Positions 40,568-58,120 of a stretch of 64,000 nt of DNA are shown here, in pieces. The DNA lies in assembly GCA_001871115.1 (NCBI GenBank), contig MNUR01000077.1:4589-68588 (forward strand). Direction: 5' to 3'. The DNA is from Elusimicrobia bacterium CG1_02_56_21 (GTDB lineage Bacteria > Elusimicrobiota > Elusimicrobia > Elusimicrobiales > UBA9959). The notes beneath the pieces were generated by a model, which saw nothing but the letters and a program-made list of their open reading frames with translations, ran no database searches and had not been told where the DNA came from. Positions within the stretch are counted from its first letter, which is position 1. Each line of letters starts with the position of its first letter. Position numbers and translations under genes: made by a program.

Positions 40568-40613
40568 TCCGATAATGGCTCAGGGCACCGTGAGATCCTA
40601 CGCCGAAGGTTGT

Positions 40614-40730: not shown

Positions 40731-40777
40731 CCACCCCTCCAGATACAAACTGACCTAAGTATAATTCCAGTTTACAA

Positions 40778-40989: not shown

Positions 40990-40997
40990 TGCAAGCT

Positions 40998-42248
40998 TTA
41001 TTTAAGCAATGAAAGATATTTTCTGAGGGCTTCAATGAAGAAAGCGGTGTCCCGCGGGGTATTGTAGGCGAAGAAGGAGATCCTTATGGTTTCGCGGAAA
41101 CCGGAGGCGAGGCAGGCCAGGTCTGCGCAATGGCGGCCGGTGCGGACGGCTATAAAGCGGCCCTTCAGCTGCAGGTTGAGGAACTGGTTAAAATCAGGGA
41201 TTGAAAAACTCTTTTTCTCGGGGACCATAGAAATAAGCGACCCCTCGGCCAGGTCTTCACGCTCTCCCAGCACGCGCACGCCATTCATACCTTCAAGAAG
41301 ATCCAGCCCGCCCGACACCAGGCCCGAAATATGCTTTCTGATATTTTCAAATCCGCATTTTTCCAGCCGCTTAATAGTAACCGCCAGGGCGGAGGCGCCG
41401 GAGTAATTCTGAACCCCCGCTTCGAAACCCTGGTAATTTTCCAGGTACTTGACCTTGTAGCGCCCTCCCGCCACGGAGACGTCCTCTATGGTTCCGCCGC
41501 CGACCCTCCAGGGGCGCAGCTTGCCCATCAGCTCCCGCTTTACATAAAGCGCCCCGGTGCCGTAAGGCGCCCCTATCTTATGCCCTGAAAAAGCGCAGGC
41601 GTCCGCGCCGCAAAGGGCGCCGCCGCCTGCATGCGAGGGGGCGAACTGCGCGTCGTCCGCAAAAAAATATGCTCCTGCGCTGTGGGCCAGGGCCGCCGCG
41701 GAGGAGATATCCTCGCGCCCGCCGAATATATTGGAGGCGTGGGTAAAACAGACCAGGGCGGTCCTGGGTCCCAGCATTTTAGCGTAAGTTTTCATGTCCG
41801 GCTTAAGACCGCCGAGCGGGACCACCCTCAGCTTTATTTTGCCGGCGGCCGCGAGGCGCTCGAAAGGCAGGAAAACGGCGTTATGTTCCAGCGGCGAAAG
41901 TATGACCTCGCTGCGCCCGGGAGTGAAGGGGAAGGCATTGGCCAGCAAATTTACCGCGTCCGTAACTCCCGAGGTGAAAATAATCTCTGCGGGGGAGCGG
42001 GCGCCCATAAAAGAAGCCACGGCGGCGCGCGCGGAGTGGAAATTCTCTTCCATTGCCAAGGCCAGGGCGTGCACGGAGCGTTTCCCCCCGCAGCCGCCAA
42101 GCTTCAGCATATGGCGCTGCTGTTCCCGCGCTGCGCAGCGCATTTTAAGAACGGTGCAGGCGCTGTCCAGATAAACCATGCGGCGGCCCCCGAACCGCGC
42201 GCCCAGCGCGGGAAATTCCTTTTTAAGAGCGGCTATTTTTTCTTTCAT
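40998..42248 (-). CDS. class V aminotransferase / cysteine desulfurase-like (last gene of the rSAM operon)
   Basis: PLP-lysine motif FSGHKIGAPYGTGALYV; 416 aa. ATGA overlap with the upstream rSAM gene. Confidence 0.85.
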   Translation of the reverse strand: MKEKIAALKKEFPALGARFGGRRMVYLDSACTVLKMRCAAREQQRHMLKLGGCGGKRSVHALALAMEENFHSARAAVASFMGARSPAEIIFTSGVTDAVNLLANAFPFTPGRSEVILSPLEHNAVFLPFERLAAAGKIKLRVVPLGGLKPDMKTYAKMLGPRTALVCFTHASNIFGGREDISSAAALAHSAGAYFFADDAQFAPSHAGGGALCGADACAFSGHKIGAPYGTGALYVKRELMGKLRPWRVGGGTIEDVSVAGGRYKVKYLENYQGFEAGVQNYSGASALAVTIKRLEKCGFENIRKHISGLVSGGLDLLEGMNGVRVLGEREDLAEGSLISMVPEKKSFSIPDFNQFLNLQLKGRFIAVRTGRHCADLACLASGFRETIRISFFAYNTPRDTAFFIEALRKYLSLLK

Positions 42249-43087
42249 AAATTCTTATGTACGGCGATATAATCTTTCCTGGGCCCGGGGCAAAGCCTGA
42301 AGAAACGGCAGCCCCGGCAGGCAGGCACACGCTTCTTCTCCAGCAAATGCGGGCCTCTGAGCCCTTTCCTCATTTTTACCATATCAACGCTGAGCCGGTA
42401 AAATTCACCGAGGAAACAGGGCGGGATATGGTCCACCTCGCATTTTATTTTGTTCGCCCGGCACAGAGCCAGGGCCCGCTCAAGATAAGGTTTCACCGCT
42501 TTATATTCAGGCAGGAACCTGGCCCCCGCTCTGCCGGCGCCTTTTATATAGCTGAACTGGAGCCAGGCCGCCCCCTTCAGTTGTTTGGCCGCGAAAGCGG
42601 CGAAAGCGGGCAGGAGGCGGTAATTGAGGGAGCTGATAACATGGGTCAGCCGCACGGCAGCCCCGGCTTTTATAAGCCTCCTGACCCCTTCAAGCCTTTT
42701 TTCAAAACCGCCGCGGGCCCGGGTGATCTTAAAATCCAGAGCGGCCGATGAAGCGGGAAAGTTTATATTAAAATAACCGCCCGCGGCGTTCAGCGCGCGG
42801 ATTATTCTTAAAAGGTCAGCTTCGGGCATGGACGCCGCGAGCAGAGCGTTGCTCTGAAGCTCGGCTTTTCGGCCCATCTTCTTTACCCCTGCAAGGAGGA
42901 GCTGCAGGGCCGCGGCGCCGGCCAGCAGCGGCTCCCCGCCGGAGATCTGGACGGGCCCGGCCGGCATTGCGGCTATCTCTTTAAGCCAGTTTTTCAAAGA
43001 GTCGGGTTCGTCAGCGCCCTGTTCAGCCGGGTAGGAGCAGAACACGCAGCGCTGGTTACATTTGCGGAAAAGGTGTATTAAAGCCAT
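42245..43087 (-). CDS. radical SAM enzyme, short auxiliary-cluster family (paralog group 1b)
   Basis: CNQRCVFC at the N-terminus, GGEP motif, conserved IPPC plus C-terminal CRGCRFFRLC. Confidence 0.85.
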   Translation of the reverse strand: MALIHLFRKCNQRCVFCSYPAEQGADEPDSLKNWLKEIAAMPAGPVQISGGEPLLAGAAALQLLLAGVKKMGRKAELQSNALLAASMPEADLLRIIRALNAAGGYFNINFPASSAALDFKITRARGGFEKRLEGVRRLIKAGAAVRLTHVISSLNYRLLPAFAAFAAKQLKGAAWLQFSYIKGAGRAGARFLPEYKAVKPYLERALALCRANKIKCEVDHIPPCFLGEFYRLSVDMVKMRKGLRGPHLLEKKRVPACRGCRFFRLCPGPRKDYIAVHKNL

Positions 43088-44271
43088 TTTTCAATTTCTT
43101 CGTATGGTTTTGCCAGCGACCAGTAATAAGTCCCGCGCGAGAACCGGCTTTTTACCAGGCCTTTCCGGGCAAGGCGGCCGGCCGAGTTCATTACCGCGTT
43201 ACCGTCGGAGCAATCGCGGCAGAGCACGATATTTTTGGAAAGTTTAAGTGTCTCTTTGGTGGAAGCCTCTTTTCTTCCTTTCAGTATCTCTACAAGGCAG
43301 CGCTCGTTATCCGAGAGGAAGATCCTGCCGGGGGCAGGCCCTTCTTCCGGGCCGGCTCCCGCTCCGACCGGAGTAAACCCTTTCCAGCCGAATATTTTCA
43401 CATAATGCCCGTCGGCACCGCCGCATTTCTTAGCCAGTGCGCACTTCCGGCAGGGAGGACCCTTAACCTTCGCGGCTTCCGCGTTCGCGTCCAGGTCCGT
43501 ACTTTTTCCGTCCGGGTCGGTTACCACCGTATTAAACGAATCGAGCCCTATCGCCAGGGTCTCGCGCCCCTTGATAAAGCAGGGCGGGGTATTGAGAAAA
43601 AGTATCTCTCCGGGCAGGCCCGCTCCCTCCATCGTCTTTACGGCCCGGAGAAAATGAGGGGCGCATTCCGGCAGGCTCACTCCCAGTTTCTTGGCGTTGG
43701 CGGCCATAGCCCCGATATAGACCGGGTAGATGATGACGAAATTGGTTATCCCCCGCTCCAGGTAGAATTTAATTATTTCGGGGAGCCGGTTATAGTTGCG
43801 GCGATTGACCAATATATTGGTGCCCACTCTTATTTTAAGGGAGCGCAGGTTCTTAAGCCCGGCCAGCGCTTTTTTAAAAGCGCCGGGGACCCCTACCAGG
43901 GCGTCATGGGCCTTTTCATTGTCGGTTGTGAAAGAGAATTTACAGAACGTCAGGCCGGCCCTGGCCAGCTTGCCGCAGAAAGCGGCGTCGGCCAGCTTTA
44001 TCCCGTTGGTCTGCACCCGTATAAAGTCGAACCCTACCGACTTGCCGAGCCCTATCACCTTGAGAATATCCGGCCTTATCAGAGGCTCCCCGCCGGTCAG
44101 GCCCAGCCTGCCGTAGCCGGCCTTACGGGCGGCGTAGATATTGCGGGCGATAGCTTCGAACGGCGCGTTGCGGGACTTGTCAAAGTCCCCCTGCGAGCAA
44201 AAAAGGCAGCGCGCATTGCAGTTATAGTTGAGTATCAGCTCGTAACATTTTCCGGTAGCTTTTTTTGCCAT
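43078..44271 (-). CDS. radical SAM enzyme, short auxiliary-cluster family (group 1a) with about 90-aa C-terminal extension
   Basis: CNARCLFC, LTGGEPLIRPD, HDALVGVPGAFKK, TPPC plus CRKCALAKKC, then an extra domain (ERCLVEILKGRKEASTKETLKL...YYWSLA). Confidence 0.85.
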   Translation of the reverse strand: MAKKATGKCYELILNYNCNARCLFCSQGDFDKSRNAPFEAIARNIYAARKAGYGRLGLTGGEPLIRPDILKVIGLGKSVGFDFIRVQTNGIKLADAAFCGKLARAGLTFCKFSFTTDNEKAHDALVGVPGAFKKALAGLKNLRSLKIRVGTNILVNRRNYNRLPEIIKFYLERGITNFVIIYPVYIGAMAANAKKLGVSLPECAPHFLRAVKTMEGAGLPGEILFLNTPPCFIKGRETLAIGLDSFNTVVTDPDGKSTDLDANAEAAKVKGPPCRKCALAKKCGGADGHYVKIFGWKGFTPVGAGAGPEEGPAPGRIFLSDNERCLVEILKGRKEASTKETLKLSKNIVLCRDCSDGNAVMNSAGRLARKGLVKSRFSRGTYYWSLAKPYEEIEKWL

Positions 44272-44279
44272 ATAGAATA

Positions 44280-45275
44280 TTAAAGGCCGTGGATGCGCCT
44301 GAACAGCGGGCTTGAAAGCCCGGCTTTGGCCGCCGCTTTAAGCCAGAGCGAAGAGATCTTCCTGGCCCGGGCCTGGCCGGGAGGGACCGGCCCGGGCTTA
44401 GCCCTGAACCGCGCCGCGGCCCAGGGCGCGGCGGGGCACATCGACTGCGAGGAATTTATCCCGCTCCCGGCGGCCAGCCTGAAAAACTTCTGCCGGCCCT
44501 TTCCGTCCGCTGCGACGCGCAACGGCGAGATCATTGCGGCGGGCCCCGAAAGCATCTTGTCGCAGGGATAAAAAAAACCGTCGGGGGCCAGTGTAATATT
44601 CCTGCAGGGTCCCGGGCGCGCTCCTCCGGCCGCCTGCGCGATAGCTTCATACCCGTTGGCGAGTTCCCACACCCCGCGCCCTTTCCGCAGGCGCACAAGA
44701 TACTCCAGGCGCAGCTCTTTTGCAGAGGAAGCGAGCCTGGACAGAGCGGCCTTGTTCCAGGGGGCTGTTATATCCGGCGCCCAGGCCAGGCGCTCGAATC
44801 CCAGGCCGAGCAACCGGGTAATGACGGCTACGAGCTGCCCGGCTTTGTCGGGCGTTATGACCGCGCTGGCGCAGGCTTTTTTCCGCAGCCGGGGCGGCAG
44901 ATTTTTCAGGGCCTTCTTTTCTTCGCAGGCCCCGCCCAGGCTTACGGTAAGCTTTATCCCCCGGCCCAGCAGCCGCGCCGCCTCGCCTTTTTCAAGAAGC
45001 AGCCCGTTAGTGAACAGGTGTACCGGCGCGCCGGGGCCGAAAAGTTTCCTTATCCGGTCCAGCGCGCAGTACAAAAGATCCCGGCAGAGCAGCGGCTCCC
45101 CCCCGAGCACGGTAAACTTAGGGGCTTCCGGCCTGGCCGCCGCGAATGAAGCCAGGGCCGCCAGCAGGGCGCGCCGGGAGATAGTGCCGCCGGAGACGCC
45201 GGAAGCGTAGCAGTAGGAGCAGGAGAGGTTGCAGCGCCCGCTCAGGTAAATAACAAGATGGTCAGGTCTGGTCAT
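44280..45275 (-). CDS. radical SAM enzyme with twitch/SPASM-like C-terminal motif (group 3)
   Basis: CNLSCSYC, LGGEPLL, CRNITLAPDGFFYPC (Cx9-15Gx4C). Paralog of 54932-56014. Confidence 0.85.
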   Translation of the reverse strand: MTRPDHLVIYLSGRCNLSCSYCYASGVSGGTISRRALLAALASFAAARPEAPKFTVLGGEPLLCRDLLYCALDRIRKLFGPGAPVHLFTNGLLLEKGEAARLLGRGIKLTVSLGGACEEKKALKNLPPRLRKKACASAVITPDKAGQLVAVITRLLGLGFERLAWAPDITAPWNKAALSRLASSAKELRLEYLVRLRKGRGVWELANGYEAIAQAAGGARPGPCRNITLAPDGFFYPCDKMLSGPAAMISPLRVAADGKGRQKFFRLAAGSGINSSQSMCPAAPWAAARFRAKPGPVPPGQARARKISSLWLKAAAKAGLSSPLFRRIHGL

Positions 45276-46242
45276 CGCTTGATCTGTGCCGCAGGCCGCC
45301 GGGCCCGCGCTTCAGTTTCTTTACCGGCTTAAGCTCTCTGTCGCCGTAATTCTTCAGGTATTCCACCCAGATCCCCTCGCAGGCGGAATAGAGGAGGCAG
45401 CCGCGGCAGCGCGCCGTTTTCCTGCGGCCGAGCGCCGCGCGCGAACCGATAGCGTCCGTGTTTACAAAATCCGGGGCCCAGTGCTCGGTCAGGAAAAGGG
45501 TTTTCTCGTTTATCTCGCTTATCTGCTCGAGGCAGCCGGTGAAATGGCAGAGGGGGACGTACCTCGCCTTCCACTGGTCCATTCCGGAGCGCAGCCCTAT
45601 TTCCAGCGCCCGCCGCATGAAAGGCGCGGCTTTGGAGATGCGCGGGACCAGGACCTGAAAATTATTTTTAGCGCCGCCGTAATTAGGGTCTACGAAGATA
45701 TACTCTACATTCCTTATTTTATTGCGGACGTAAAAAGCGGCGAGCCGCGGCAGCGCGGACATATTCTGCTTTACCACGGTGGTGTTGCCGTTGATCCGCT
45801 TAAAGCCCAGTGCCTTAAGGTTTGCGAGCCCCTTTTTAAGCTGGCTGAAACTGCCGGAAGCCCGGGTAAGCGCGTCATGCACCCGCGCGCCGGGCCCGTG
45901 CACCGAGAAGATCAGGGAATCTATCCCGGAAGCCACTATTTTTTTAGCAGCCGCCATGTCCGCAAATACCCGGCCGTTCGTAGCGCAGGCCACCTCGGCT
46001 ATGCCCAGCTTTTTGGCGGCCTTTACCACCCGGCTGAAATCAGGGCGTATAGTGGCTTCCCCGCCTATTATCTCCAGTATATCGGCGCCTTTATTTTTAG
46101 CCTGCAGAACCTCGCGCAGAAGCTCAGCCGTGCTTTTCTCCGGCAGGCCGCGCTTGTCCGAGTCTATGCAGAAAGCGCAGTTATTGTTGCAGGCGTAGCC
46201 GGTAAATATGACTATCTTGAGTTTTTTCCCGTTCTTTTTCAT
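45262..46242 (-). CDS. radical SAM enzyme, short auxiliary-cluster family (group 1b)
   Basis: CNNNCAFC, IGGEATIRPD, VHGPGARVHDAL, VPLC plus CRGCLLYSAC...ELKPVKK. Confidence 0.85.
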   Translation of the reverse strand: MKKNGKKLKIVIFTGYACNNNCAFCIDSDKRGLPEKSTAELLREVLQAKNKGADILEIIGGEATIRPDFSRVVKAAKKLGIAEVACATNGRVFADMAAAKKIVASGIDSLIFSVHGPGARVHDALTRASGSFSQLKKGLANLKALGFKRINGNTTVVKQNMSALPRLAAFYVRNKIRNVEYIFVDPNYGGAKNNFQVLVPRISKAAPFMRRALEIGLRSGMDQWKARYVPLCHFTGCLEQISEINEKTLFLTEHWAPDFVNTDAIGSRAALGRRKTARCRGCLLYSACEGIWVEYLKNYGDRELKPVKKLKRGPGGLRHRSSDDQT

Positions 46243-47390
46243 CGGAGCATCCCGGCCAGGTTGCGGTCCAGAACCAGCGAGAGCACGGCCCCGGCGAAGA
46301 TCCAGAGCGCGAAAGGCCTGCCCCGGACAACCTCCACCTTGGGATTATGCACTTTCAAGCTGTTCAGCCAGGTCCTCAGTTCGCCCACCTGCTCCTCGCT
46401 CAGACCGTCCTTGAAACAATCGTCGAACGCACCTTCAAAAGCCGTATTATCCTTGAGCATTTTCGAGGCTTTCGCGGACAGCACCATTCCCGGCTCGAGT
46501 TCGCGGGCCGTAACGTGATACATATCTTTCTTCTCCATCAAAAATTCAAGCATGAAGCGGCCGAAGAAAAGCAGCAGGCTGAATTTGAAGAAATTACTCA
46601 AAGCCCCCGAAGCCAGCAGCCAGAGATGTTCGGGGAAGAAAAAGAAACCGCCGACAAAATACACCGCGTAGCAGCCCGCGCTGAGATAGCCCCACCGCCG
46701 GCTGCTGAACGCCCCGCCGATCTTGTCCCACAGCATGAACATGAAGAAGAACAGGATATCCGCCCTGGAAAATATTTTCCCGAGGAATCCGCGGGCCTCC
46801 AAAGCCAGGACCTGGTGGAGCAGAAAAACAAAGCCTATATTCAAAGCCAGGGCCGCTACGGCCGCTTTATTCCTGCCGGCGCTCAGCACCGCCATCCGCT
46901 TTTTCATATCAGACCAGACCTCAGCGAAGAAGTCTGAAGGGGAAGCTGAGCTGAACCCGGAAGCGATAAAGCTCCCGAGTATCCACACCGCCGCGCTCAC
47001 GAATATATTTATCAGCAGGCTTAGAAAAAGATAGTGGGGAAAATTACGGAGGTAAGGATTGGCCAGGGGGAGCGAGGCCGAAACCAGCATAAAGAACTTG
47101 GCGTCCCCGGCAGGCCAGATCTCGGAATACCAGAGCACCAGCCCGGCCAGCACGGACCAGAACAGATGAATAGCCAGCAGGAGGTAGAAATTATAATTCA
47201 TGAAGCTCTGCGCGCGCCCCGTATAGCCAAGCGCGGTATACACCAGGAAAGCGGCCAGAGAGGCGGCGAACAGCCTCATCCCGGTCTTTATAGCGGCGTT
47301 AGGGATCTTCCTGGTGGCCAGGTCGCGGCTTACGACAGAGGCCGCCCAGACGGTGAAAGCGGCGAGGAACACAAGAGATACGGTTTTCAT
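46239..47390 (-). CDS. A24 (prepilin peptidase/TadV/FlaK-like) aspartic protease domain membrane protein with extra TM helices and C-terminal soluble domain
   Basis: Both catalytic Asp motifs are present: RDLATRKIPN near the N-terminus and WPAGDAKFFML. About 9-10 TM helices, 383 aa. ATGA overlaps on both sides. Confidence 0.8.
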   Translation of the reverse strand: MKTVSLVFLAAFTVWAASVVSRDLATRKIPNAAIKTGMRLFAASLAAFLVYTALGYTGRAQSFMNYNFYLLLAIHLFWSVLAGLVLWYSEIWPAGDAKFFMLVSASLPLANPYLRNFPHYLFLSLLINIFVSAAVWILGSFIASGFSSASPSDFFAEVWSDMKKRMAVLSAGRNKAAVAALALNIGFVFLLHQVLALEARGFLGKIFSRADILFFFMFMLWDKIGGAFSSRRWGYLSAGCYAVYFVGGFFFFPEHLWLLASGALSNFFKFSLLLFFGRFMLEFLMEKKDMYHVTARELEPGMVLSAKASKMLKDNTAFEGAFDDCFKDGLSEEQVGELRTWLNSLKVHNPKVEVVRGRPFALWIFAGAVLSLVLDRNLAGMLR

Positions 47391-48280
47391 TTTTTCACCG
47401 GCTTTAATTCCGAATCCCCGAAAGCCTTATAATACTCGAGCATCAGCCCGAGGCATTTTCTCCTGAGGCGGCAGCCGCGGCAGGCCGCGGGATAGATCCT
47501 GTCTTCAGGGGGCAGGGTGATCCGGGCCAGCGGCCTGAGTTCGGGCCTGAGTTGGCAGAGCGGGAAATGGTAAAGTCTGAAATCGGAAAACTTTTTTATC
47601 AGCGGGAGCGCGGCGCCCACCACCTTAGAGGAAACCGAGAATTTAAGCCCTACGGAGCTGTGATTTTCAAGCGACATCCCTTCTATCTCGTAATGTATGG
47701 CCGTGACGGTATAGCTCCCGGTGTCGGGGAACTTCTTAAGCAGGAACTCCAGGGTTTTAGGAAAAGCCGCCAGGTTTTTCTTATGCAGGACCAGGCGTAT
47801 CTCTACCCTTACGCCCCCGGCCATGGAGAAAAGATTCTCCAGGCCGCGCACTGTCTGGCTAAAAGAGCCCCTCACCCCGGCCACGGGATCATGAACGCCA
47901 GCCGAAGGGCCGTGCACGGCTATAGCCACCGAAAACGGGGGCCTGGCCAGGCGGGCGAATTTACCGGCGAATTTCCTATCCGCGAAAAGGCGCCCGTTAG
48001 AAAGCAGCGTTATAGGAATCCCGGGCATCCGGCGGCGGAAATAAGCTACCAGCTGGAAAAAATCGGGGTGGATGGTAGGCTCCCCGCCCGTCAGGCTGAT
48101 AAACCCGGCCAGGCCGGAATTTTTAAGGTATACCTGCCCCTGGCCCTTGAGATAGCGCTCCAGCTTCTCTATCTGGCATTTAAGGCGGTACTGAGAAGAA
48201 TCCTGGCGCGCGAAAGACTCCATATTGGTGCACATGACACACTTGTTATTGCATTTATTCCAGAGGGCGATATCAGGCAT
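47387..48280 (-). CDS. radical SAM enzyme, short auxiliary-cluster family (group 1b)
   Basis: CNNKCVMC, LTGGEPTIHPD, VHGPSAGVHDPV, FPLC plus CRGCRLRRKC...ELKPVKK. Confidence 0.85.
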   Translation of the reverse strand: MPDIALWNKCNNKCVMCTNMESFARQDSSQYRLKCQIEKLERYLKGQGQVYLKNSGLAGFISLTGGEPTIHPDFFQLVAYFRRRMPGIPITLLSNGRLFADRKFAGKFARLARPPFSVAIAVHGPSAGVHDPVAGVRGSFSQTVRGLENLFSMAGGVRVEIRLVLHKKNLAAFPKTLEFLLKKFPDTGSYTVTAIHYEIEGMSLENHSSVGLKFSVSSKVVGAALPLIKKFSDFRLYHFPLCQLRPELRPLARITLPPEDRIYPAACRGCRLRRKCLGLMLEYYKAFGDSELKPVKK

Positions 48281-48283
48281 GGC

Positions 48284-50448: not shown

Positions 50449-51361
50449 TTGCGCCCCGCTTTCTTTTTTCCCGGGCAGGCTTGAACTCGCTCCAGCCGTA
50501 GAGCTCCGGGTACTCGCGCCAGGGGCCCTCGCAGACCTTGAACCATTTGCAGGAGCGGCATTCCGCGCGTTTTACCTTGCCTTCGTCGCGGCGGTAATCT
50601 CCATAGCTTTCGATATAAAGGTCCGCGTCTGAAACCGGCCCCTCGGGGATCACGCTCTCGGCCACGCATTTCTCGTAACCTTTCATAAGGCAGTACGGAA
50701 TGGCCTCCGTAAAGCAGGGGATGTCTTTACTAATGCCGCAGTCCAGAGCCCGGTGCAGATACGGGACTATGTCGGTTTTCCTGGGAGTCAGCCATTTCCG
50801 GTTCTCCCAGGCCGATCCCACCAGGTGCACAAAAGCGAACTGGAACTGGTCTACCTTGAGATAAGCCAGGAGCTTGGCCAGCTCGGGCAGGTCTTTGTAA
50901 TTGACGGAAGTGATGACCGAATTGGTCAAAACGAACATCCCGAGTTTTTTGCAGTTCAATATTCCCTGCACCACTTCTTTAAAGCTGCCTTTGGCACCTG
51001 TAAGCTTCTCGTGAATTTCCGGCCTGGAGCCGTGCATGGACGGCCCCATCTCGGTAACGCCTGCTTTTTTCAGCTCGGCGCAGTAATCGTAATAGGCGAA
51101 GCGGCGGCCGTTGGTCTGCACCTGAACGCTTTCATAACCCATCTTGCGCGCGGCGCGTACCGCAGCCGGCAGGCCGGGGTGGAGAGTTGGTTCGCCGCCG
51201 GTAAAAACCACGGCGCTGACTCCGGTTTTCCTGGCCCGGGCCAGGTCGGACTTTATCTCGGCCAGGCTTTTACGGGCCGCAAGAGAGCGCTTCGCGCCCT
51301 GGGCGCAGAAGTCGCACATATTATTGCAGTTGAAGCCTATTTTTATGTCGATGCGTTTCAT
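50345..51361 (-). CDS. radical SAM enzyme, short auxiliary-cluster family (group 1b)
   Basis: CNNMCDFC, FTGGEPTLHP, IPYC plus CRSCKWFKVC...EFKP. The 3' end overlaps the next gene by 104 nt in another frame. Confidence 0.85.
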   Translation of the reverse strand: MKRIDIKIGFNCNNMCDFCAQGAKRSLAARKSLAEIKSDLARARKTGVSAVVFTGGEPTLHPGLPAAVRAARKMGYESVQVQTNGRRFAYYDYCAELKKAGVTEMGPSMHGSRPEIHEKLTGAKGSFKEVVQGILNCKKLGMFVLTNSVITSVNYKDLPELAKLLAYLKVDQFQFAFVHLVGSAWENRKWLTPRKTDIVPYLHRALDCGISKDIPCFTEAIPYCLMKGYEKCVAESVIPEGPVSDADLYIESYGDYRRDEGKVKRAECRSCKWFKVCEGPWREYPELYGWSEFKPAREKRKRGANEKVRRHLQRGQGQSPGPAGSGCRRGGNRLPRGF

Positions 51362-53541
51362 TTTACGGCCTTCAAGCCTTTTACTGCGAATTTTTCGGAA
51401 TAACCTTTAGCCGGCCCCGGGCACTTAAGGAGGAATTTGCACTTCAGGCACAGCTTGGGTTTCAGCGCCCCGGCCGCCCCGCCCGATTCTCTTGCGTCCC
51501 CGGACGCGCTTCCCTGCAGGTAGTCGGCGGACAGCTTCCAATGCGGGTAAAGAGCGCAGAGAGGAACCCTGAGGAACTTGACAGGCAGCCCGCTGCAGGC
51601 CGCCGCTTCGGCCAGCGGGCGCAAAGCCGCATAATCAGAGACTATATTCCCGGTTCCTTCAGGGAAAGCCAGGATAATGCTGCCGGCCCCGGCTTTCACA
51701 AAACTCCCAGCCGCGCCAAGCAGCCCGGCCGGGACGGGCTTTCGTATAACCCCCACCATGCAAACGGCAAGACCGGCAGCTGAAGCGCTCCTGACCTGCG
51801 CAAGGTCAGCAGGGCGCGCGCTTTCCGCTTTGAACATAAAATTATCCGCCCCGGCCGACCTGAGCGCGGAGAAATATCCCGCGTCGCGCGGCAATGCCGA
51901 GAGCAGCGAAACTTTTTTAAAACCGGCCTTCGCGGCGCAGCGCACGGCGCCCAGCTCCAGGCTGCCGGGACCGCCCGGCCGTCCGCAGATTATCAGGGCC
52001 TCAGAGCGGCCGGAATTGGCGGCGGTTAAAAGTGCCAGAGCAATTTCCCGGGAGGTCAGTTCCGGACCGGATTGAGGCGCCCCGTAAAGAAGGCTTTCTA
52101 CCCCGCCGGCAAGGCACAGCTCGAACTCGCCCGCCGCAGTTTTATTAAAGTCCGGGGGCGCAAGAACCGCCGCCGAAGACCTGGCGGGGGAAACTTTCCC
52201 GTAGATCTCTTCCAGGCGCCTTACCACGCCGGGAGAATAAAACTCGCGGCGCAATTCGCAGGTGGCGCGCTCCCTGTCTTTCACCTGCAGGGACCTGCCG
52301 GAGACCGACAGGACTCCGGAACTCAGCAGCCTTTTTATCTTACCGGGAAAAGCGGCCCCCGGGCCTACACCAAAGCGGCGCCGGAAAGTCTGCTTATCCA
52401 CCTGTCCGCGGTGCAGCGCGTCCAGTATCACAAAATTCGCCATCTCGTCTTTTTGGCTCAGCAGGGCGCCGGCTTCCGTAGGCAGCCTGCCTGCCGAGAG
52501 TTCGGACTCATAAAGCCTCTCGTCCGGAACATTGCGGTACCTGATCCCGTTCATCGCATAGGACACGGAGCTGGGACCCAGCCCGAGTATGGAATAAGAA
52601 CCTTCTTCCCCCTGGTCGTAACTGTAGGGCCACCAGTCGCCTTTGCGCTTATACACCCAGTGACCGCAGCGCATTTTATAGCCCTTGTCGAAAAGAATAT
52701 CCATCCCGCGGCGGCGCCAGGCCCTGGCGTCTTCCAGCGCATTTCCCTCCAGGGAACCGCCTTTGCCCCCGGCAGTGGTGCGGTACTTGGGCTGGAAATC
52801 AAAAAGATAAACTCTTTCCACGTCCAGGGCGGCAGTCGTCCTGACGTCTTTGAGAAAACTTTTTTCCGTCTGACCCGGCAGGCCGGTAATAAGGTCAACC
52901 TCTACCTGCAGGATACCGGCTTTCTTCGCCTGCTTTATAACCTCTATGGTCCGAGCCGGGTCCTGACGCCTCCCGAGAGCTTTCAGCAGCAGCGGATCGA
53001 AACTCTGCACTCCTATAGCCAGCCACTCCACTCCCGCAGCTTTGAGATAAGCCAGCTTAAGCGCGTCGAGCGTATTGGGGCTGGCCTCAAAAGCTATCCT
53101 GGTCTTCGGGGTTATTTTAAAATATGCGCGCAGTATTCCGAAAAGCCTTTCCAGCTGCGGGATGGTCAGCAGGCTGGGAGTCCCCCCTCCTATGCAAAGA
53201 AACCGCAGCGGCCGCCCTTTAAAGAGCGGGCCCATTATCGCTGTTTCCTTCTCGAGGGCGTCGAGGTAGCGGTCCACGGCCCCGGGAGCCGAATGGATCT
53301 TATAGAAGCCGCAAAAACGGCACAGCGTCTCGCAGAATGGGACATGGACATAGACCACGGGCCGGCGCCCGCCGTCCGACTTAAGCGAGCGCACCCAGGC
53401 GGCCTTTGTCTTATCAGCACTGCTCAGCCGGGGCCAGGCGGCCATAGGCGGATAATTAGGCGGGGCCTCAGGCAGGGAGTCCCTGTCGACGCAGGCCAGC
53501 AGCCTTTCAAAAGATATAGTCGTCCGTTCTTTTTCCATCAT
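51358..53541 (-). CDS. HemN-like (class C) radical SAM enzyme fused to a degenerate copy of the short rSAM paralog domain
   Basis: N-terminal VHVPFCETLCRFCGFYK and IGGGTPSLL (HemN family). The C-terminal ~280 aa lack CxxxCxxC but keep VPLC plus CLKCKFLLKCPGPAKGY, as in the paralogs. 727 aa. Confidence 0.85.
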   Translation of the reverse strand: MMEKERTTISFERLLACVDRDSLPEAPPNYPPMAAWPRLSSADKTKAAWVRSLKSDGGRRPVVYVHVPFCETLCRFCGFYKIHSAPGAVDRYLDALEKETAIMGPLFKGRPLRFLCIGGGTPSLLTIPQLERLFGILRAYFKITPKTRIAFEASPNTLDALKLAYLKAAGVEWLAIGVQSFDPLLLKALGRRQDPARTIEVIKQAKKAGILQVEVDLITGLPGQTEKSFLKDVRTTAALDVERVYLFDFQPKYRTTAGGKGGSLEGNALEDARAWRRRGMDILFDKGYKMRCGHWVYKRKGDWWPYSYDQGEEGSYSILGLGPSSVSYAMNGIRYRNVPDERLYESELSAGRLPTEAGALLSQKDEMANFVILDALHRGQVDKQTFRRRFGVGPGAAFPGKIKRLLSSGVLSVSGRSLQVKDRERATCELRREFYSPGVVRRLEEIYGKVSPARSSAAVLAPPDFNKTAAGEFELCLAGGVESLLYGAPQSGPELTSREIALALLTAANSGRSEALIICGRPGGPGSLELGAVRCAAKAGFKKVSLLSALPRDAGYFSALRSAGADNFMFKAESARPADLAQVRSASAAGLAVCMVGVIRKPVPAGLLGAAGSFVKAGAGSIILAFPEGTGNIVSDYAALRPLAEAAACSGLPVKFLRVPLCALYPHWKLSADYLQGSASGDARESGGAAGALKPKLCLKCKFLLKCPGPAKGYSEKFAVKGLKAVK

Positions 53542-54932
53542 TGATATTTCTCCGCCCAGCGCTCCAGTATCTTCCTGGTCCCGGGACGGCTTAACTTCTC
53601 AAAAACTATATCGAACACGCCCATAAAGACCCGGCACCTGCCGCTGGTCATCATGTCCCCCCAAAAACTTCCCTGTGCGGCGTAATTATAGACAGGGGAG
53701 ACCCGGCAGTACGGGCTGTACGGGCAGCGCGCGCAGCGCGGCTGGGCCAGGCGCGGGAAGCAGGAGAGGATCAGTGTTTTCCCCAGCGGGGAGGAGACCA
53801 TCTCCCCGAAAGAACCGGTAACGGAGCCCAGCCTGAAAAAATCATTACCGCCTGCAGCAAGAAGCCGGGCCTCGTCCGAACCGTAAACAGAACCGTCCGG
53901 GCCGTAAGCCAGACGGTAAAGCAGGTCCAGGTTCTGGTAGCGCGGCCGCTCTCCGGTTACAATATGCTTGACGAACATAAGGGCGCCTTTCTCATAGACC
54001 TCTACCCCGGCACGGTTAAGCCTCAGCATATGGTCCAGCGCTTTGGAATAGAAGGGCAGGAACTCTTCCGGGGTAACCGCGAGGCCGCAATTCCCCGCGG
54101 CCCGGCCTATCGGTTCCAGCGGGCCCAGCTGCACGCGCGCTATGCCCCTTTTTAAAAATTCGTCCACTATCTCCCCCGGATAGGGCAGGGAATATTTGGT
54201 GACGGTACAGATAGCGTTGAGGCTTTCTATCCCGCCTTTGGCGGAGAGCTTGTTAACCAGGGCTATGGCACGCGCCGCCGCGGCGTGGCTGGAGCCTCCC
54301 AAAAGTTTACGCGCCCGGTCGTGAACGGGAGCCGGCCCGTCGAGAGAGGTGCATAAAGTTACCCCGCGGGAGGAAAGGTACGCCAGTTTTTCAGGATTAA
54401 GCCCCGCCAGGTTGGACACCATTGAAAAATGCAGGCCCCGCCCCGTCCTGGCGGCGCGGCTGCGGGCTTCCTCTATCAGGTACTTCACGACCCTGAAATT
54501 ACGCAGCGGTTCGCCGCCCTGGAATTCTATCACCAGCTCCCGCGACCCGGTCCTGAAAATAAAATCCAGGGTTTTTCCCGCCGTGGCCAGGGACATGTGC
54601 CGGCCGCCGGCGGCGGCCGAGGCGCCGCAATAAAGACAGGCGTGGTCGCAATCCCCCGTCACCGACACGATATGCACCCTGGGCCCGGCCCAGTCTTTAA
54701 GCAGGGCCGCGAAGTGGCCGGGGAGCAGCTTTTCAAAATCCAGAAGCCCGCTGAAGAAACCGCGGGCGCCCAGCGTCTCGTTCTCGGCGGCCGGCAGGGG
54801 CGCGCCCGAGGCGAAACGGGAGAGTGACGAGGCTTTTATTTCCGCGTTCCGCGAGAAATCGTTGGAAAGCAGGCAGGCCCCGCCGCGGCGGGCGAAGTTG
54901 AAATCGGAAGGCTGATTTTTCTTTGCCGCCAT
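53538..54932 (-). CDS. radical SAM enzyme, anSME-like paralog with degenerate SPASM domain (group 2)
   Basis: CDHACLYC, FQGGEPL, C-terminal CARCPYSPYC only. Start set to ATG 54932 (MAAKKNQ), overlapping the upstream stop (TGATG). The longer track ORF would overlap the upstream gene by 213 nt. Confidence 0.85.
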   Translation of the reverse strand: MAAKKNQPSDFNFARRGGACLLSNDFSRNAEIKASSLSRFASGAPLPAAENETLGARGFFSGLLDFEKLLPGHFAALLKDWAGPRVHIVSVTGDCDHACLYCGASAAAGGRHMSLATAGKTLDFIFRTGSRELVIEFQGGEPLRNFRVVKYLIEEARSRAARTGRGLHFSMVSNLAGLNPEKLAYLSSRGVTLCTSLDGPAPVHDRARKLLGGSSHAAAARAIALVNKLSAKGGIESLNAICTVTKYSLPYPGEIVDEFLKRGIARVQLGPLEPIGRAAGNCGLAVTPEEFLPFYSKALDHMLRLNRAGVEVYEKGALMFVKHIVTGERPRYQNLDLLYRLAYGPDGSVYGSDEARLLAAGGNDFFRLGSVTGSFGEMVSSPLGKTLILSCFPRLAQPRCARCPYSPYCRVSPVYNYAAQGSFWGDMMTSGRCRVFMGVFDIVFEKLSRPGTRKILERWAEKYQ

Positions 54933-56014
54933 CAGATATACCCCTTTTTGAATAATTTTATCAATTGCCTGAGATAAGCCTTCATTGCGGGTTCCGAAGC
55001 CGCGCGGGCCACTATTTCCCTGGCCGCGTCCCGGCAGACCCCGGTGCGCAGGGCATGGGCGCGGCTCCCGTCCGACAGACCGGGGAGGCGGTAATAGGAC
55101 CGCAAGCATTCCCGGCAGAGCTTCGAACCCGCTTTTGGCCTGCAAGCCAGATAGCGCCCAGCGAGGCCGCTCCCCGCGCTGCCCACCGCGGCCGCGCGGC
55201 GCTGCGCCGCCGTCTTCAGGAAAGGGTAAGGATAGAAAGACAAAGTTCCGTCCGGGAAAAGCTCGAGGTCGCGCAGGAACGGACAGAAAGAATTAGCGTA
55301 CTCTTTATCGCGGAGGAGTTCGAGCAGCGGCTCCAGGACCACGGGCTTCCCCGAAGCGGCGCGCTCCAGGGTGAACCGGGCTATCTTCCGCATTCCCCCC
55401 TCAAAAGCGGCGTAATCGGCGGCGCGCCAGGGAACCCCGTGCACGCACTCAATACCTATGTTCGCAAAACCCTGCTTCACCAGGCTCTGAAAATCTCCGT
55501 AAACCGCGGCGGCGCGGCGCGGGTGCACGCACAGGATAACGTGCAGGTTCTCTCCGAGCGCGGAAGTAAAAAGCGGGATCTTCTTTTCCACCGCGCTGTA
55601 GGAACCTTTGCCCGAAATAAATTTGCGCGACAGGTCATGGCTTCTCCCGCTGCCGGAGAAACTCACGGCGAACCTGGCGCCGCGCCCGGCCAGCCAGCCC
55701 AGTTCTTCGGGCCCGGCCAGAACCCCGTTGCTCGCGACGGAAACCGCCAACAGCTTGCCCAGTTTTTTAGCCCTGGCTATCGCCGCGGTTATTATCTTTT
55801 TAACAAGAACAAATTCCATCAGCGGCTCGCCGCCGTATATCTCGAGGGTTTTGCTCTTTCCCGGGGAACCCAGGAAGGCGTATACGGCCGCCGCCGCGTC
55901 CTTAAAAGGGATGGTCTCTGCCCTGCTTTTATCTATAAAACAATGGGTGCACCTCAGGCAGCAGCCCGAAGTCACGGCGATCTTGAATTTCAGAACTTCT
56001 TTATTGAACTTCAT
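54932..56014 (-). CDS. radical SAM enzyme with twitch/SPASM-like C-terminal part (group 3)
   Basis: GCCLRCTHC, YGGEPLM, CPFLRDLELFPDGTLSFYP. Paralog of 44280-45275. Confidence 0.85.
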   Translation of the reverse strand: MKFNKEVLKFKIAVTSGCCLRCTHCFIDKSRAETIPFKDAAAAVYAFLGSPGKSKTLEIYGGEPLMEFVLVKKIITAAIARAKKLGKLLAVSVASNGVLAGPEELGWLAGRGARFAVSFSGSGRSHDLSRKFISGKGSYSAVEKKIPLFTSALGENLHVILCVHPRRAAAVYGDFQSLVKQGFANIGIECVHGVPWRAADYAAFEGGMRKIARFTLERAASGKPVVLEPLLELLRDKEYANSFCPFLRDLELFPDGTLSFYPYPFLKTAAQRRAAAVGSAGSGLAGRYLACRPKAGSKLCRECLRSYYRLPGLSDGSRAHALRTGVCRDAAREIVARAASEPAMKAYLRQLIKLFKKGYI

Positions 56015-57021
56015 TTCTTTTTCTTAAGCAGCTTCTCCGCGCGCTTGAGCCTGTTATGGGACGGCAGAAGAGGGAAAGGCGCCGCCTCCTTTTTAACAGG
56101 CCTGAACTCTTTGCTGCCGAAAATATCGGAATACCATTTCTCGAACCCCATGCACCTGCCGTTATAGACGCAGCTGCTGCAGGACTTGTTCTTAAGGCAA
56201 AGCCTTTCTTTAAGGCCGTGTATCCTGTCTTCCCTGCCGTCAATATGAAAGAGCGGCTCGTCTGTTTTGGGAGCCGCGGGGCGCTCCCATTCGGCCATCA
56301 GGTGCGCGGCCTCGGGGATATTGCAGGGGCAGAAATTCACCAGCACAGAATCCTCTATAACGGCCCCGGAGCTCTTCAGGTACTCCAGAGCTTCCCGCAC
56401 ATAAGGCACAGCCTGCGTTACGCTGACTTTAAGCTCCCCGGCCCTTTCGGCCATCATCCCGTTATAGTGAGGGAAGATAACGTTAAAATCCTCTATGCCG
56501 AAACGGCCGCTGATAATTTCGAGAAGATTGCGCAGGGTTTTATAATTGGGCCCGGTAAGAGCGTGGTTAACAGAGATCTCGGCCCCGAGACGGGTCAGGT
56601 TTTCGAACGCCTTCATCACTTTTTTAAAAGCGCCGGGCACGCCCACAAGAGCATCGTGCAGCCCGGGGGTATGACCATGCACCGAGACCCGGAAAATATT
56701 AGCGCCCGCGTCCACAAGGGACTTCGCGTAGTCCGGGTCGGCAAGTTTCAGCCCGTTGCTCATAACCTGGACATAGGGGTAGCCCATCGAGCGCGCCAGC
56801 TTCACTATCTTCGGCAGGTCGGGGCGCATAGTTATTTCTCCGCCTATCAGGTAGGCGACCCAGCATTTTTCCATCCGGCCTTTGTACAGGGCCGCGGCCG
56901 CTTTTTCAAAGGGCATGCGCTCGGCCACCTGGTTCAGCACGGCGTCGGGGTGGTAGCAGAACCTGCACTTTGCGTTGCAGTCGTAATTGAGTATAACTTC
57001 GCAGTTCCTTGGTTTTATCAT
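56011..57021 (-). CDS. radical SAM enzyme, short auxiliary-cluster family (group 1a)
   Basis: CNAKCRFC, IGGEITMRPD, VHGHTPGLHDALVGVPGAFKK, CPC plus CSSCVYNGRC...EFRPVKK. Confidence 0.85.
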   Translation of the reverse strand: MIKPRNCEVILNYDCNAKCRFCYHPDAVLNQVAERMPFEKAAAALYKGRMEKCWVAYLIGGEITMRPDLPKIVKLARSMGYPYVQVMSNGLKLADPDYAKSLVDAGANIFRVSVHGHTPGLHDALVGVPGAFKKVMKAFENLTRLGAEISVNHALTGPNYKTLRNLLEIISGRFGIEDFNVIFPHYNGMMAERAGELKVSVTQAVPYVREALEYLKSSGAVIEDSVLVNFCPCNIPEAAHLMAEWERPAAPKTDEPLFHIDGREDRIHGLKERLCLKNKSCSSCVYNGRCMGFEKWYSDIFGSKEFRPVKKEAAPFPLLPSHNRLKRAEKLLKKKK

Positions 57022-57025
57022 TGGT

Positions 57026-58120
57026 TCAGGACCTGGAGGACCGGGGGCCGTCCCCGAACAGTGTTTTTACGCGGAAAGAAGAGGGCGCCCGCGACAGCGG
57101 TTTAAATTCCGCGCCGCCCAGAAGGGCCAGGTACTCCTTGTCGAAACCCCGGCATTTTTTATCAAGTACGCAGCGGGCGCAGTTCTTTGTCTTGGCGCTC
57201 TGGGTGTTTTTCATTTCGGCCATATTCACCGAAACCCCGTCCACCGGCATCAGCGGGTCCGCCCCCGCCGTCTCGGACTCCCAGTCCGCCAGCAAATTCA
57301 TATGTCCCGGCAGAAGGCAGGGAGTGAAATTCACAAGCATGCGGGAAAAAGCGGCTATCCCCGGCTTTTCGAGTATAGCGAGACCCTTTTTTATGTAAGG
57401 CAGCGTCAGGGATATTTTTACTTTGAGCCTGTCTTTATTAGCGGCCATTACCCCGCGGTAATGACCGTAGATGATGTTATAGTAATTCATCCCGAGTTCA
57501 TTGTAGGCGAAATCGAAAAAATCGGGAAAATGACGGTAGTTCAGGGAATTTACCACCTGGTTGGTCCCGGTCTCGCGCCCGAGCCGCCTGAGATTCTTTA
57601 CCGCCCGCACCGCGAGGTCAAAAGCGCCCGGCACGCCCACTAACTTATCATGAAGCGCGGCGGTATGCCCGTGCAGGGAGATATCGAACATATTGAAGCC
57701 GGCTCCGGCCATTTTAGCGGCGTAAGCGGGGTCAGCCAGCTTTGCGCCGTTGGTGCAGAGTTTGATGCAAGGGTAGCCCGCCTTGCGCGCGAAAGAGGCT
57801 ATTTTACCGATATCGCCCCGCAGCGTGGGCTCGCCGCCTATGATTGCGGCTATCCAGCAGCCCTGCCTGCGCCCGAGGTAAAGAGCTTTAAAAATATCCT
57901 CCAGCCTGGACTCGGGGCCGCCGGGCCCGAATGAACCGGGCTCGCTGTAGCAGAACAGGCATTTATTATTACACGCGGAATTCACCGTCACTTCGCAGAC
58001 CTTTGCTTTAAGGTTGACCGGCCAGCGTATATTGGCCAGGCGCGCCGGTATTTCGGACCTGTTAAGCCCCGGCATTTTACCCAGGGCGTATTTAATGTTT
58101 TCTTTCAAAAAAGGATTCAT
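57026..58120 (-). CDS. radical SAM enzyme, short auxiliary-cluster family (group 1a); first gene of the operon
   Basis: CNNKCLFC, IGGEPTLRGD, LHGHTAALHDKLVGVPGAF, TPC plus CARCVLDKKC...EFKPL. Confidence 0.85.
   Translation of the reverse strand: MNPFLKENIKYALGKMPGLNRSEIPARLANIRWPVNLKAKVCEVTVNSACNNKCLFCYSEPGSFGPGGPESRLEDIFKALYLGRRQGCWIAAIIGGEPTLRGDIGKIASFARKAGYPCIKLCTNGAKLADPAYAAKMAGAGFNMFDISLHGHTAALHDKLVGVPGAFDLAVRAVKNLRRLGRETGTNQVVNSLNYRHFPDFFDFAYNELGMNYYNIIYGHYRGVMAANKDRLKVKISLTLPYIKKGLAILEKPGIAAFSRMLVNFTPCLLPGHMNLLADWESETAGADPLMPVDGVSVNMAEMKNTQSAKTKNCARCVLDKKCRGFDKEYLALLGGAEFKPLSRAPSSFRVKTLFGDGPRSSRS

Follow-up and report, generated by a model that had tools for sequence, protein, structure and literature searches.

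What does a bacterium make with 12 radical S-adenosylmethionine (rSAM) enzymes encoded side by side? The question is raised by a 64,000-nucleotide (nt) stretch of Elusimicrobia bacterium CG1_02_56_21 (hereafter the window; G+C content about 57%), in which 15 minus-strand genes run in unbroken succession from 58120 to 40998, a span of 17.1 kb. We number these genes g1 to g15 in the direction of transcription, and coordinates are window positions unless a locus label is given. Judged by homology and gene order, the operon is probably the enzyme-rich downstream part of an expanded Hxs ("type 4") system that modifies a small exported ribosomal peptide, and its most likely target is a His-Xaa-Ser (HxS) repeat peptide of the HxsA4 type, encoded just outside the window, rather than a free cofactor or a lipid.

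A first-pass annotation, made from the letters of the window, had proposed a 17.1-kb operon and a radical maturation pathway for a cofactor, a lipid, or a protein. The locus is real, strongly conserved, and unusually large, and both the operon and a conserved multi-step pathway stand. The operon is, however, one portion of a larger cluster that measures about 38 kb and includes 17 rSAM genes, and a cofactor or lipid is now a less likely target than the HxS peptide.

Organization of the operon and the cluster

The open reading frame (ORF) listing and the junction analysis bear out the tight coupling of the 15 genes: there are seven ATGA start/stop overlaps (56011, 53538, 51358, 49720, 47387, 46239, and 42245) and a single TGATG junction (54932), and the remaining junctions are overlaps of 10, 14, and 104 nt or gaps of 3, 4, and 8 nt. 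Overlaps occur at 11 of the 14 junctions, and every chosen start is ATG. The motif CxxxCxxC is present in 12 of the 15 products, and all 12 score above the Pfam PF04055 gathering score, as many rSAM enzymes as had originally been called. The other three genes encode a Dph6-type PP-loop ATPase (g7), an A24-like membrane protein (g10), and a SufS-like desulfurase (g15).

The cluster extends past 58120 through a HemN-like rSAM gene (58275-59627) and the genes at 59607-64000, and then for about 10 kb outside the window. Its full size in the source organism comes from longer contigs, of which L002 and L003 reach beyond the window end to the HxS peptide; they are tied to the window by an exact product match of the B12-binding rSAM and by g1-g4 products that score like the window copies. 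The window also corresponds, in reverse complement, to a 73.8-kb contig from a groundwater metagenome; an exact look-up of the window protein encoded at 23059-24336 gave no match. From the far end toward the window, the order is up237 (a secreted protein), an HxsD-like protein, HxsB, a second HxsD-like protein, Cys355 (a 355-amino acid [aa], Cys-rich, membrane-anchored protein), and, adjoining Cys355, HxsA4. A PapB-like rSAM, a second B12-binding rSAM, and an amine-oxidase-like flavoprotein follow, and then sugar-activating and glycosyltransferase genes and the HemN-like rSAM before g1-g15.

The HxS peptide and its Hxs partners

The HxsA4 precursor is encoded by a 106-aa ORF (L002 3985-4305) with the sequence MKNKKQSAGKNIKLFLNSEEGKMLDADIVKAGLALGILGAAMVDQASAQTIHQNYFTTNAHVSHQSHGSHGSHGSHGSHSSHGSHGSHASHSSHGSHGSHARGGWC. 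It holds 13 His-Xaa-Ser triplets, mostly HGS, and passes NF038313 with 71.3 bits against a cutoff of 55. One can distinguish a leader (FLNSEEGKMLD), a Sec-like hydrophobic segment ending in ASA|Q, and a C-terminal ARGGWC, and there is no domain besides the leader and the repeats.

Two HxsD-like proteins, encoded about 8-10 kb beyond the window end, match TIGR03976 at 35.3 and 43.6 bits (cutoff 50; E = 1e-8 and 3e-11) and also match PF27806. The His-Xaa-Ser families TIGR03976-03979 were reportedly described by Haft and Basu in 2011. We place the cluster in the Hxs family because g8 (Table 1), the upstream (third) HxsB (TIGR03978, 494 bits, above the cutoff of 370; L002), and HxsA4 all pass their cutoffs, and because HxsC or HxsC4 is the top-scoring family for g9 and its six paralogs.

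Conservation and synteny

The marker gene of the system is g10, whose window product is 100% identical to a protein of Elusimicrobia bacterium CG1_02_56_21. Its family counts 153 relatives in a set of 5.8 billion proteins, all named ones being from Elusimicrobia, and it occurs in 127 GTDB species genomes; 78 loci, all from Elusimicrobia, were fetched and mapped with the window proteins as queries. Gene order is conserved over these 78 species loci and holds down to 36-50% marker-protein identity in dozens of species, so that a chance juxtaposition is refuted. The canonical order is up237-HxsD-HxsB-HxsD-(Cys355-HxsA4), then a variable group of rSAM genes (g1-g8, with or without the PP-loop gene), and then g9-g10-g11-(g12)-g13-g14-SufS-ygeY. 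Three loci (L012, L013, and L015) reproduce the window gene order nearly exactly.

The best examples for linking peptide and operon are L008, L039, L041, L053, and L094, where the peptide and the orthologs of g1, g3, g4, g6, and g8-g15 form one same-strand array; in L008, L039, and L094, HxsB-HxsD-Cys355-HxsA4 lies directly upstream of the operon orthologs. Because these comparative loci place both in one same-strand array, we tie the operon to the HxS peptide. Syntenic orthologs of each window paralog score 350-700 bits, whereas paralogs score 30-250 bits against one another, which indicates ancient duplications whose copies have each been maintained.

Across 24 loci, the HxsA4 peptides keep the leader FL(N/S/T)SEEGK(M/I)L, a 13-residue hydrophobic stretch, and an AxA/AQ-type site, followed by 8-30 HGS/HAS/HSS triplets and a C-terminus that reads ARGGWC, or GS(W/Y)/GQW in distant lineages. 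An Omnitrophota metagenome-assembled genome (MAG; L091) has the same core, including a g10 relative (E = 4e-9). The 8.7-kb locus L092, whose peptide is labeled Actinobacteria by NCBI, carries an HxsD-HxsB-357 aa-HxsA4-rSAM part, and neither a g10 nor an up237 relative turned up on these 8.7 kb.

"Minimal" loci, such as L010 (RIFOXYA12_FULL_51_18), join up237-HxsD-HxsB-HxsD to g9-g10-g11-g13-g14-SufS. Just past ygeY/ygeW, the same genome has a second module with an HxsB-like gene, a TP_methylase gene, a Cys355-like gene, a 76-aa HxsA4, and more rSAM genes. Going by this gene order, the system looks two-modular, with module 2 inserted into module 1 in the lineage of the window.

Five B12-binding rSAM genes take the place of the g1-g6 region in the close relative L031 (76% g10 identity), so the stretch from the peptide to g7/g8 appears to be a hot spot of rSAM turnover.

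Nitrogenase-like genes in related loci

NifH, NifD, and NifK were looked for in the 64-kb window and none was found, in agreement with the first-pass annotation; nif-like genes are likewise absent from L002-L004 and from the region upstream of up237 in the close relative L094. The kinship with nitrogenase-paralog loci of Elusimicrobia, raised at the same time as a possibility, has been established: 13 homologous loci of other species carry NifH (PF00142) and NifD/K-like (PF00148) genes inside the locus, often as a 740-860-aa NifH-NifD fusion, interleaved with the g10 family, HxsB, HxsC-like rSAMs, and the HxS peptide. In L068, a single strand reads HxsD-HxsB-HxsA4-rSAM-NflH-NflD-NflK-rSAM-rSAM-g10-rSAM. 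The fusion lies immediately upstream of up237 in L061, directly after g10 in L077, and after the g10-rSAM pair in L069, L084, L088, and probably L075 (the g10 ORF of L075 is masked in our locus map by overlapping ORFs).

Locus L081 comes from GWA2_69_24, one of the genomes that Meheust et al. (bioRxiv 10.1101/765248) mention by name, and has two HxsB genes, an HxsA4 peptide, and a g10 relative. Those authors proposed, from context, that the Group VI nitrogenase paralogs act in tetrapyrrole-type cofactor synthesis, and a Chem Rev review of July 2026 still places Group VI under "unknown cofactor synthesis" (PMC13474568); neither text mentions Hxs components. Because NifH/NifD/K-like genes are embedded in 13 homologous loci, we regard the Group VI nitrogenase paralogs and their rSAM suite as the same system as the one studied here.

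One joint reading goes further, and we offer it tentatively, as possible but on balance doubtful. The Group VI nitrogenase-like enzymes (NflHDK) would belong to the expanded Hxs system and act on the peptide; their target would be the rSAM-modified (HGS)n peptide, or heterocycles derived from its His/Ser triplets; the window would show this assembly line in a version that lacks NFL; and more than 12 distinct radical enzymes would yield a heavily cross-linked, His-derived molecule of a new class, peptide or cofactor-like polymer. If this is true, NflHDK would be the first reductase of the nitrogenase family with a part in maturing a ribosomal peptide.

The enzymes of the operon

The four rSAM architectures proposed earlier hold in the NCBIfam and motif comparison: seven short HxsC-like enzymes (g1, g2, g6, g9, g11, g13, and g14), two HxsB-like SPASM enzymes (g4 and g8), two PapB-like enzymes (g3 and g12), and one HemN-like fusion (g5). 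Table 1 lists the features.

Table 1. Genes of the operon and its flank within the window, with the evidence for each assignment
Gene	Position	Strand	Product	Length (aa)	Evidence
g1	57026..58120	-	HxsC-like rSAM, CNNKCLFC	364	PF04055 68.3 bits; best NCBIfam matches HxsC4 108.9 and HxsC 88.1 bits, both under cutoff
g2	56011..57021	-	HxsC-like rSAM	336	PF04055; HxsC4 94.7, HxsC 77.4 bits
g3	54932..56014	-	Short PapB-like rSAM/SPASM-type peptide maturase	360	PF04055
g4	53538..54932	-	HxsB-like rSAM, reduced SPASM cysteine set	464	TIGR03978 (HxsB) 311.9 bits, under 370 cutoff
g5	51358..53541	-	HemN-like (class C) rSAM with degenerate HxsC-like C-terminal domain	727	PF04055, HemN_C
g6	50345..51361	-	HxsC-like rSAM	338	PF04055 98 bits; HxsC4 141.8 bits, under cutoff
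g7	49720..50448	-	Dph6/MJ0570-type PP-loop ATP pyrophosphatase	242	PF01902 50.4 vs 23.2 bits cutoff
g8	48284..49723	-	HxsB, His-Xaa-Ser system rSAM/SPASM maturase	479	TIGR03978 441.8 vs 370 bits; SPASM PF13186
g9	47387..48280	-	HxsC-like rSAM, closest paralog to canonical HxsC	297	TIGR03977 (HxsC) 154 bits over whole profile, under 267.9 cutoff
g10	46239..47390	-	Polytopic membrane protein, prepilin-peptidase (A24)-type Asp motifs	383	Family motifs
g11	45262..46242	-	HxsC-like rSAM	326	PF04055; HxsC4 134 bits
g12	44280..45275	-	PapB-like short rSAM	331	PF04055, Fer4_12; PapB 54 bits
g13	43078..44271	-	HxsC-like rSAM, C-terminal extension of about 100 aa	397	PF04055; HxsC 94.9 bits
g14	42245..43087	-	Divergent HxsC-like rSAM	280	PF04055; HxsC 70.6 bits
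g15	40998..42248	-	Group II (SufS/CsdA-like) cysteine desulfurase, last gene of the operon	416	PF00266 243 bits; SufS subfamily TIGR01979 253.6 bits, under 475 cutoff
	58275..59627	+	HemN-like rSAM (13th), divergently transcribed	450	PF04055; STM4012, HemZ family matches
	59607..61250	-	Protein with YVTN-type beta-propeller segment	547	Weak PF02239; PDB 6RTD (E = 3e-8) and 1L0Q over residues 430-530
	61254..61988	+	Family 2 (GT2) glycosyltransferase	244	PF00535 75 bits
	61985..63451	-	B12-binding (class B) rSAM (14th)	488	PF02310 and PF04055; P-/C-methyltransferase-type NCBIfam matches
	63448..64000	-	Sugar-1-phosphate nucleotidyltransferase, cut by window end		NCBIfam RmlA/GlmU-type matches

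The seven HxsC-like enzymes have a common C-terminal motif, CxxCx5CxG...Y...FG..E(F/L)KP (CxxCx5CxG...FG..EFKP in g1), and are 20-38% identical to one another, with g1 and g2 at 38%. For g1, g2, g6, and g11, the top family is HxsC4. By their scores, the enzymes are homologous to HxsC yet outside the equivalog. Their positions are informative as well: g6 has syntenic orthologs at 500-570 bits in many loci, g9 lies directly downstream of g8 and its ortholog stands beside the g10 family in nearly all loci, and the position of g11 right after g10 is conserved among loci.

The g13 extension (43078-43380) is absent from the other HxsC-like paralogs, and a comparison of it with the PDB gave ArsR-type winged helix-turn-helix similarity only, at a non-significant level. 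A role in binding a peptide or DNA is conceivable.

Among the remaining rSAM enzymes, g4 is 36-37% identical to g8 and to the upstream HxsB. The top NCBIfam match of g3 is PapB (89 bits), with many families of maturases for ribosomally synthesized and post-translationally modified peptides (RiPPs) next. The large g5 product matches the STM4012, HutW, and HemN families, and its C-terminus has the HxsC-type CxxCx5CxG motif without a second CxxxCxxC.

The start codon of g7 deserves attention. The motif SGGKDS, at residues 9-14, is present only in the 242-aa reading (the one with the 104-nt overlap with g6); the public gene call is 211 aa and starts downstream of this PP-loop. The 242-aa reading is needed, since the shorter call loses the ATP-pyrophosphatase motif. 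With it, the earlier assignment of a Dph6/MJ0570-type PP-loop ATPase is secure in both profile score and motif, and PDB matches to 3RJZ and 2D13 (E ~1e-10) were found; the protein nevertheless falls outside the Dph6 equivalog (TIGR03679, 60.6 vs 197 bits). The class V cysteine desulfurase named as the last gene is equally well founded: besides its Pfam match, g15 has the motifs SGHK (pyridoxal phosphate lysine) and RTGRHCA (active-site cysteine).

The A24-like membrane protein

The call of an A24-type protease for g10 survives in part. In an alignment of 25 family members reaching down to 38% identity, D22 (in DLATRKIPN) and G94-D95-A96-K97 (in WPAGDAKF) are invariant, and a C-terminal GRPFALWIF is also seen; we take the D22 and WPAGDAKF motifs to be the A24 active site of GxGD aspartyl proteases. 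PF01478 is matched by 9 of the 25 members (best E = 4.4e-6) and also carried by two database homologs of g10. The window copy itself, however, matches no model in Pfam or NCBIfam. Its AlphaFold2 model has a mean predicted local distance difference test score (pLDDT) of 81.6, and a Foldseek search of the model against the PDB gave nothing at E < 0.4, with FlaK (3S0X) at rank 36 (E = 4.8); a profile search against PDB sequences found nothing.

Proposed mechanism

The following assembly line is a proposal that would fit the gene content. The HxsD-like proteins may present HxsA4 to the HxsB, HxsC, and PapB-type enzymes, and three HxsB-type, seven or eight HxsC-type, and three PapB-type enzymes would then cross-link or otherwise alter His, Ser, and neighboring residues via 5'-deoxyadenosyl radicals. 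Their steps are probably non-redundant, since the paralogs are ancient and each has been conserved in its own right. The HemN-like and B12-binding rSAMs might add one-carbon units, the PP-loop ATPase might adenylate a carboxylate for amidation or ring closure, and SufS could deliver the sulfur that the numerous Fe-S clusters, or the product itself, require. Sugars might be attached to Ser residues by the glycosylation gene products, and the A24-like protein would cut off a leader at the membrane as the peptide is exported. Related lineages may add an ATP-driven nitrogenase-like reductase (NflHDK) to the line, and up237 may be a second substrate. The line would end in a His-rich peptide, extensively altered and located in the periplasm or at the surface. 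This peptide might serve in metal or redox binding, or it might have an envelope- or phage-related function.

Such a scheme supplies a testable substrate, a small HxS repeat peptide, for one of the largest known concentrations of rSAM genes (12 in the operon, 17 in the cluster). It extends the Hxs family, given a phage-defense function only recently, to a far more elaborate, phylum-wide system. For the Group VI nitrogenase-like enzymes, it offers a specific and testable alternative to the tetrapyrrole guess and makes their function experimentally approachable. Much new radical peptide chemistry could be learned from a dozen individually conserved HxsC/HxsB paralogs if they all act on a single three-residue repeat.

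Weighing the alternatives

Several observations weigh against the assignment of the operon to an HxS peptide. A six-frame regular-expression search found no HxS repeats in the window, and no homologs of HxsD, Cys355, up237, or HxsA4 are present among the window ORFs. The peptide gene is about 11 kb from the operon with two opposite-strand genes between, so the two are not one transcript here. All HxsC-like enzymes fall far short of the HxsC and HxsC4 cutoffs (the six paralogs besides g9 score 70-95 bits against HxsC), and the HxsD-like proteins narrowly miss theirs. The A24 assignment, which holds at the family level only, is the least secure item of all. Finally, loci of the L010 type have no adjacent peptide, HxsA4 being in the second module, and part of the operon may serve up237 instead.

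This last point leads to the first alternative, that of a split function, which we consider unlikely but worth the reader's attention. The conserved g9-g15 half would modify and process secreted up237, and only the variable g1-g8 part would serve the HxS peptide. That is how the minimal loci are built (up237-HxsD-HxsB-HxsD-g9-g10-g11-g13-g14-SufS), up237 is always first in the cluster and can be present in two to three tandem copies, and its invariant, aromatic-rich motif after a Gly could be cleavable by an A24-type enzyme. However, the above-cutoff HxsB and the HxsD-like proteins in that very half point to an HxS-type substrate, and the minimal genome does encode HxsA4, 12 kb off, with another HxsB. 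Furthermore, up237 is without an HxS motif, and its poor structural model (pLDDT 65) gave no informative match.

The second alternative concerns the role of the product and leaves the enzymology as it is: a matured periplasmic peptide could block phage DNA entry, as in canonical HXS. It is favored by the homology to HXS, in which the effector depends on its HxS repeats and on being exported (PMC13128918), by the export-type leader on the peptide, and by the hypervariable up237 middle together with fast rSAM turnover (e.g., in L031), as an arms race would predict. Yet the system is apparently vertical and phylum-wide in a fixed chromosomal context (ygeY/ygeW, SufS) and not on mobile islands, the peptide lacks a peptidoglycan-binding domain, PADLOC shows generic viperin-type rSAM similarity only and no defense-system model, and the cost of 12-17 rSAM enzymes far exceeds that of the two in HXS. 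We judge anti-phage defense improbable.

A small-molecule cofactor, tetrapyrrole-derived or other, made by rSAMs like NirJ, AhbC/D, HemN, and BchE, is in our view very doubtful. There are HemN-like and B12-rSAM genes in the cluster, weak secondary NCBIfam matches to AhbC/D, NirJ, and MoaA, and a TP_methylase gene in module 2 of L090, and the NflHDK relatives DPOR, COR, and CfbCD reduce tetrapyrroles (bioRxiv 10.1101/765248; PMC13474568). The NirJ/Ahb matches, though, are generic rSAM-core similarity (40-70 bits vs cutoffs of 500-650), whereas the best and sole above-cutoff assignments are peptide-maturase families (HxsB and HxsA4), and a conserved leader-bearing precursor peptide with HxsD partners is co-operonic. 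No tetrapyrrole biosynthesis genes were found among the cluster genes examined, the housekeeping part of the window not having been checked specifically.

A chance pile-up of adjacent rSAM genes of unrelated function, for which only the general abundance of rSAM genes in anaerobes speaks, is contradicted by the overlapping junctions and by the synteny described above and can be set aside.

Flanking genes and boundaries

The divergent HemN-like rSAM upstream of g1 is 32% identical to g5 and is co-located with the cluster in L008, L039, L040, L042, and L047. The sugar nucleotidyltransferase that the window end cuts off is 313 aa at full length in L002-L004. A promoter scan gave no clear candidate upstream of g1.

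At the far end of the cluster, up237 is a secreted 248-aa protein of an Elusimicrobia-only family (213-290 aa), encoded at L002 1-654, L010 6001-6714, and the first ~1 kb of L093 (reverse strand). Its mature N-terminus, SETLTLTTYYPAPYGGY after a Gly and then ..LLTT, is invariant, its middle is hypervariable, and its C-terminal cysteines (C185, C198, and CC244-245) are again invariant. The tandem copies mentioned above are in L037, L038, and L049. No family could be assigned to up237, and its AlphaFold2 model was poor (predicted template modeling score 0.34), with no usable Foldseek match. Its role might be that of a partner or of a second substrate.

All four independent assemblies of the cluster (L002-L004 and L093) stop about 0.2-4 kb from the up237 5' end or inside the cluster; an exact-match metagenome scan for more upstream sequence added one contig, which ends about 215 nt upstream of up237. 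Since the assemblies of the source organism end near up237, the left boundary was read in the relative L094, where housekeeping genes and a barnase/barstar pair lie upstream of up237. A barnase-type ribonuclease gene was seen a short way upstream of the cluster in three loci (L009/L010 3669-4636, L094 5016-5953, and L011 348-971). In L009/L010 and L094, a barstar partner is beside it; in L011, the ribonuclease stands alone, directly upstream of the g10 homolog.

On the 3' side of g15, a 490-nt gap precedes an unrelated unit of ygeY, ygeW, and carbamate kinase, located at 35922-40509. The gap (40510-40997) is G+C-rich and non-coding, with repeated GC-rich segments and hairpins such as CGCGCGCACGGTGTGCGCG at 40859-40877, and has no Rfam match. 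Rfam and tRNA scans of the window gave no RNA genes, and terminator-like sites at the operon boundaries were not enriched over shuffles. The genes ygeY (M20 hydrolase) and ygeW (knotted carbamoyltransferase) follow the SufS end in at least 23 loci, and in L090 (3844-6266) they lie between the two Hxs modules; this proximity may reflect either conserved synteny or a functional tie.

Comparison with known systems

The earlier view that the set matches no characterized pathway is partly upheld: it can be assigned to the named Hxs system, with g8 above the HxsB cutoff, but canonical HXS is itself a chemically undefined four-gene system. In Escherichia coli, maturation of HxsA, a protein with HxS repeats, depends on HxsB and on HxsC, the latter carrying bound HxsD; HxsA acquires +8 Da on a SHRSS motif plus N-terminal processing; matured HxsA is exported and blocks phage DNA entry, and the effector needs both the HxS repeats and export (PMC13128918). 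The likeness to HXS (HxsABCD) lies in an above-cutoff HxsB-type rSAM/SPASM gene directly upstream of an HxsC-type rSAM gene, in the small HxsD-like proteins, and in a substrate with tandem HxS repeats and an N-terminal export/processing region.

The differences are considerable. HXS has two rSAM genes, as compared with 12-17 here; the HxsC-like and HxsD-like proteins here fall short of the family cutoffs; and the substrate here is 76-160 aa long with 8-30 mostly HGS triplets and without a peptidoglycan-binding domain. The extra parts are the A24-like protein, the PP-loop ATPase, SufS, the HemN-like and B12 rSAMs, the glycosylation genes, up237, and the Cys-rich protein. HXS is found in Pseudomonadota in a four-gene layout, whereas the present system occurs in Elusimicrobia and Omnitrophota, in a stable chromosomal context and with the layout up237-D-B-D-Cys355-A4-...-B-C-...

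NCBIfam holds type 4 models (NF038313 for HxsA4, NF038332 for HxsC4, and NF038315 for an HxsD-like protein), and NCBI already uses the name HxsA4 for peptides of this kind from Elusimicrobiales and Omnitrophota MAGs. The precursor here passes the HxsA4 cutoff, but no protein here or in the related loci tested reaches the HxsC4 cutoff of 500 bits (best 141.8 in the window, for g6, and 207.7 in related loci, for L091), and the models are annotation only. A full-text literature search on Hxs terms returned just the 2026 HXS defense paper of Li et al. (PMC13128918) and incidental mentions, with no account of a multi-rSAM cluster or a nitrogenase-like link. The peptide type is thus already known to curators, and for the multi-rSAM assembly and its nitrogenase-like link we found no earlier description in the literature searched.

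The Group VI loci of Meheust et al. are alike in phylum and habitat and have in common the g10-family protein, HxsC-like rSAMs, HxsB, and the HxS peptide. They differ in having NifH/NifD/NifK, none of which is in the cluster of the source organism as assembled, and the tetrapyrrole-type cofactor was proposed for them in a paper that leaves their peptide, HxsB, and HxsD content unremarked.

Multi-rSAM RiPP pathways (proteusins/polytheonamides, ranthipeptides/PapB, triceptides, and sactipeptides) are the remaining comparison. They resemble the present system in their leader-bearing ribosomal precursor, SPASM/twitch rSAM maturases, B12-rSAM C-methyltransferase-type genes, and candidate dedicated protease. 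The window proteins are all under the cutoffs of those families, and where such pathways employ one to a few, often iterative, rSAM enzymes, the present system has a dozen or more distinct, individually conserved paralogs and one low-complexity repeat peptide.

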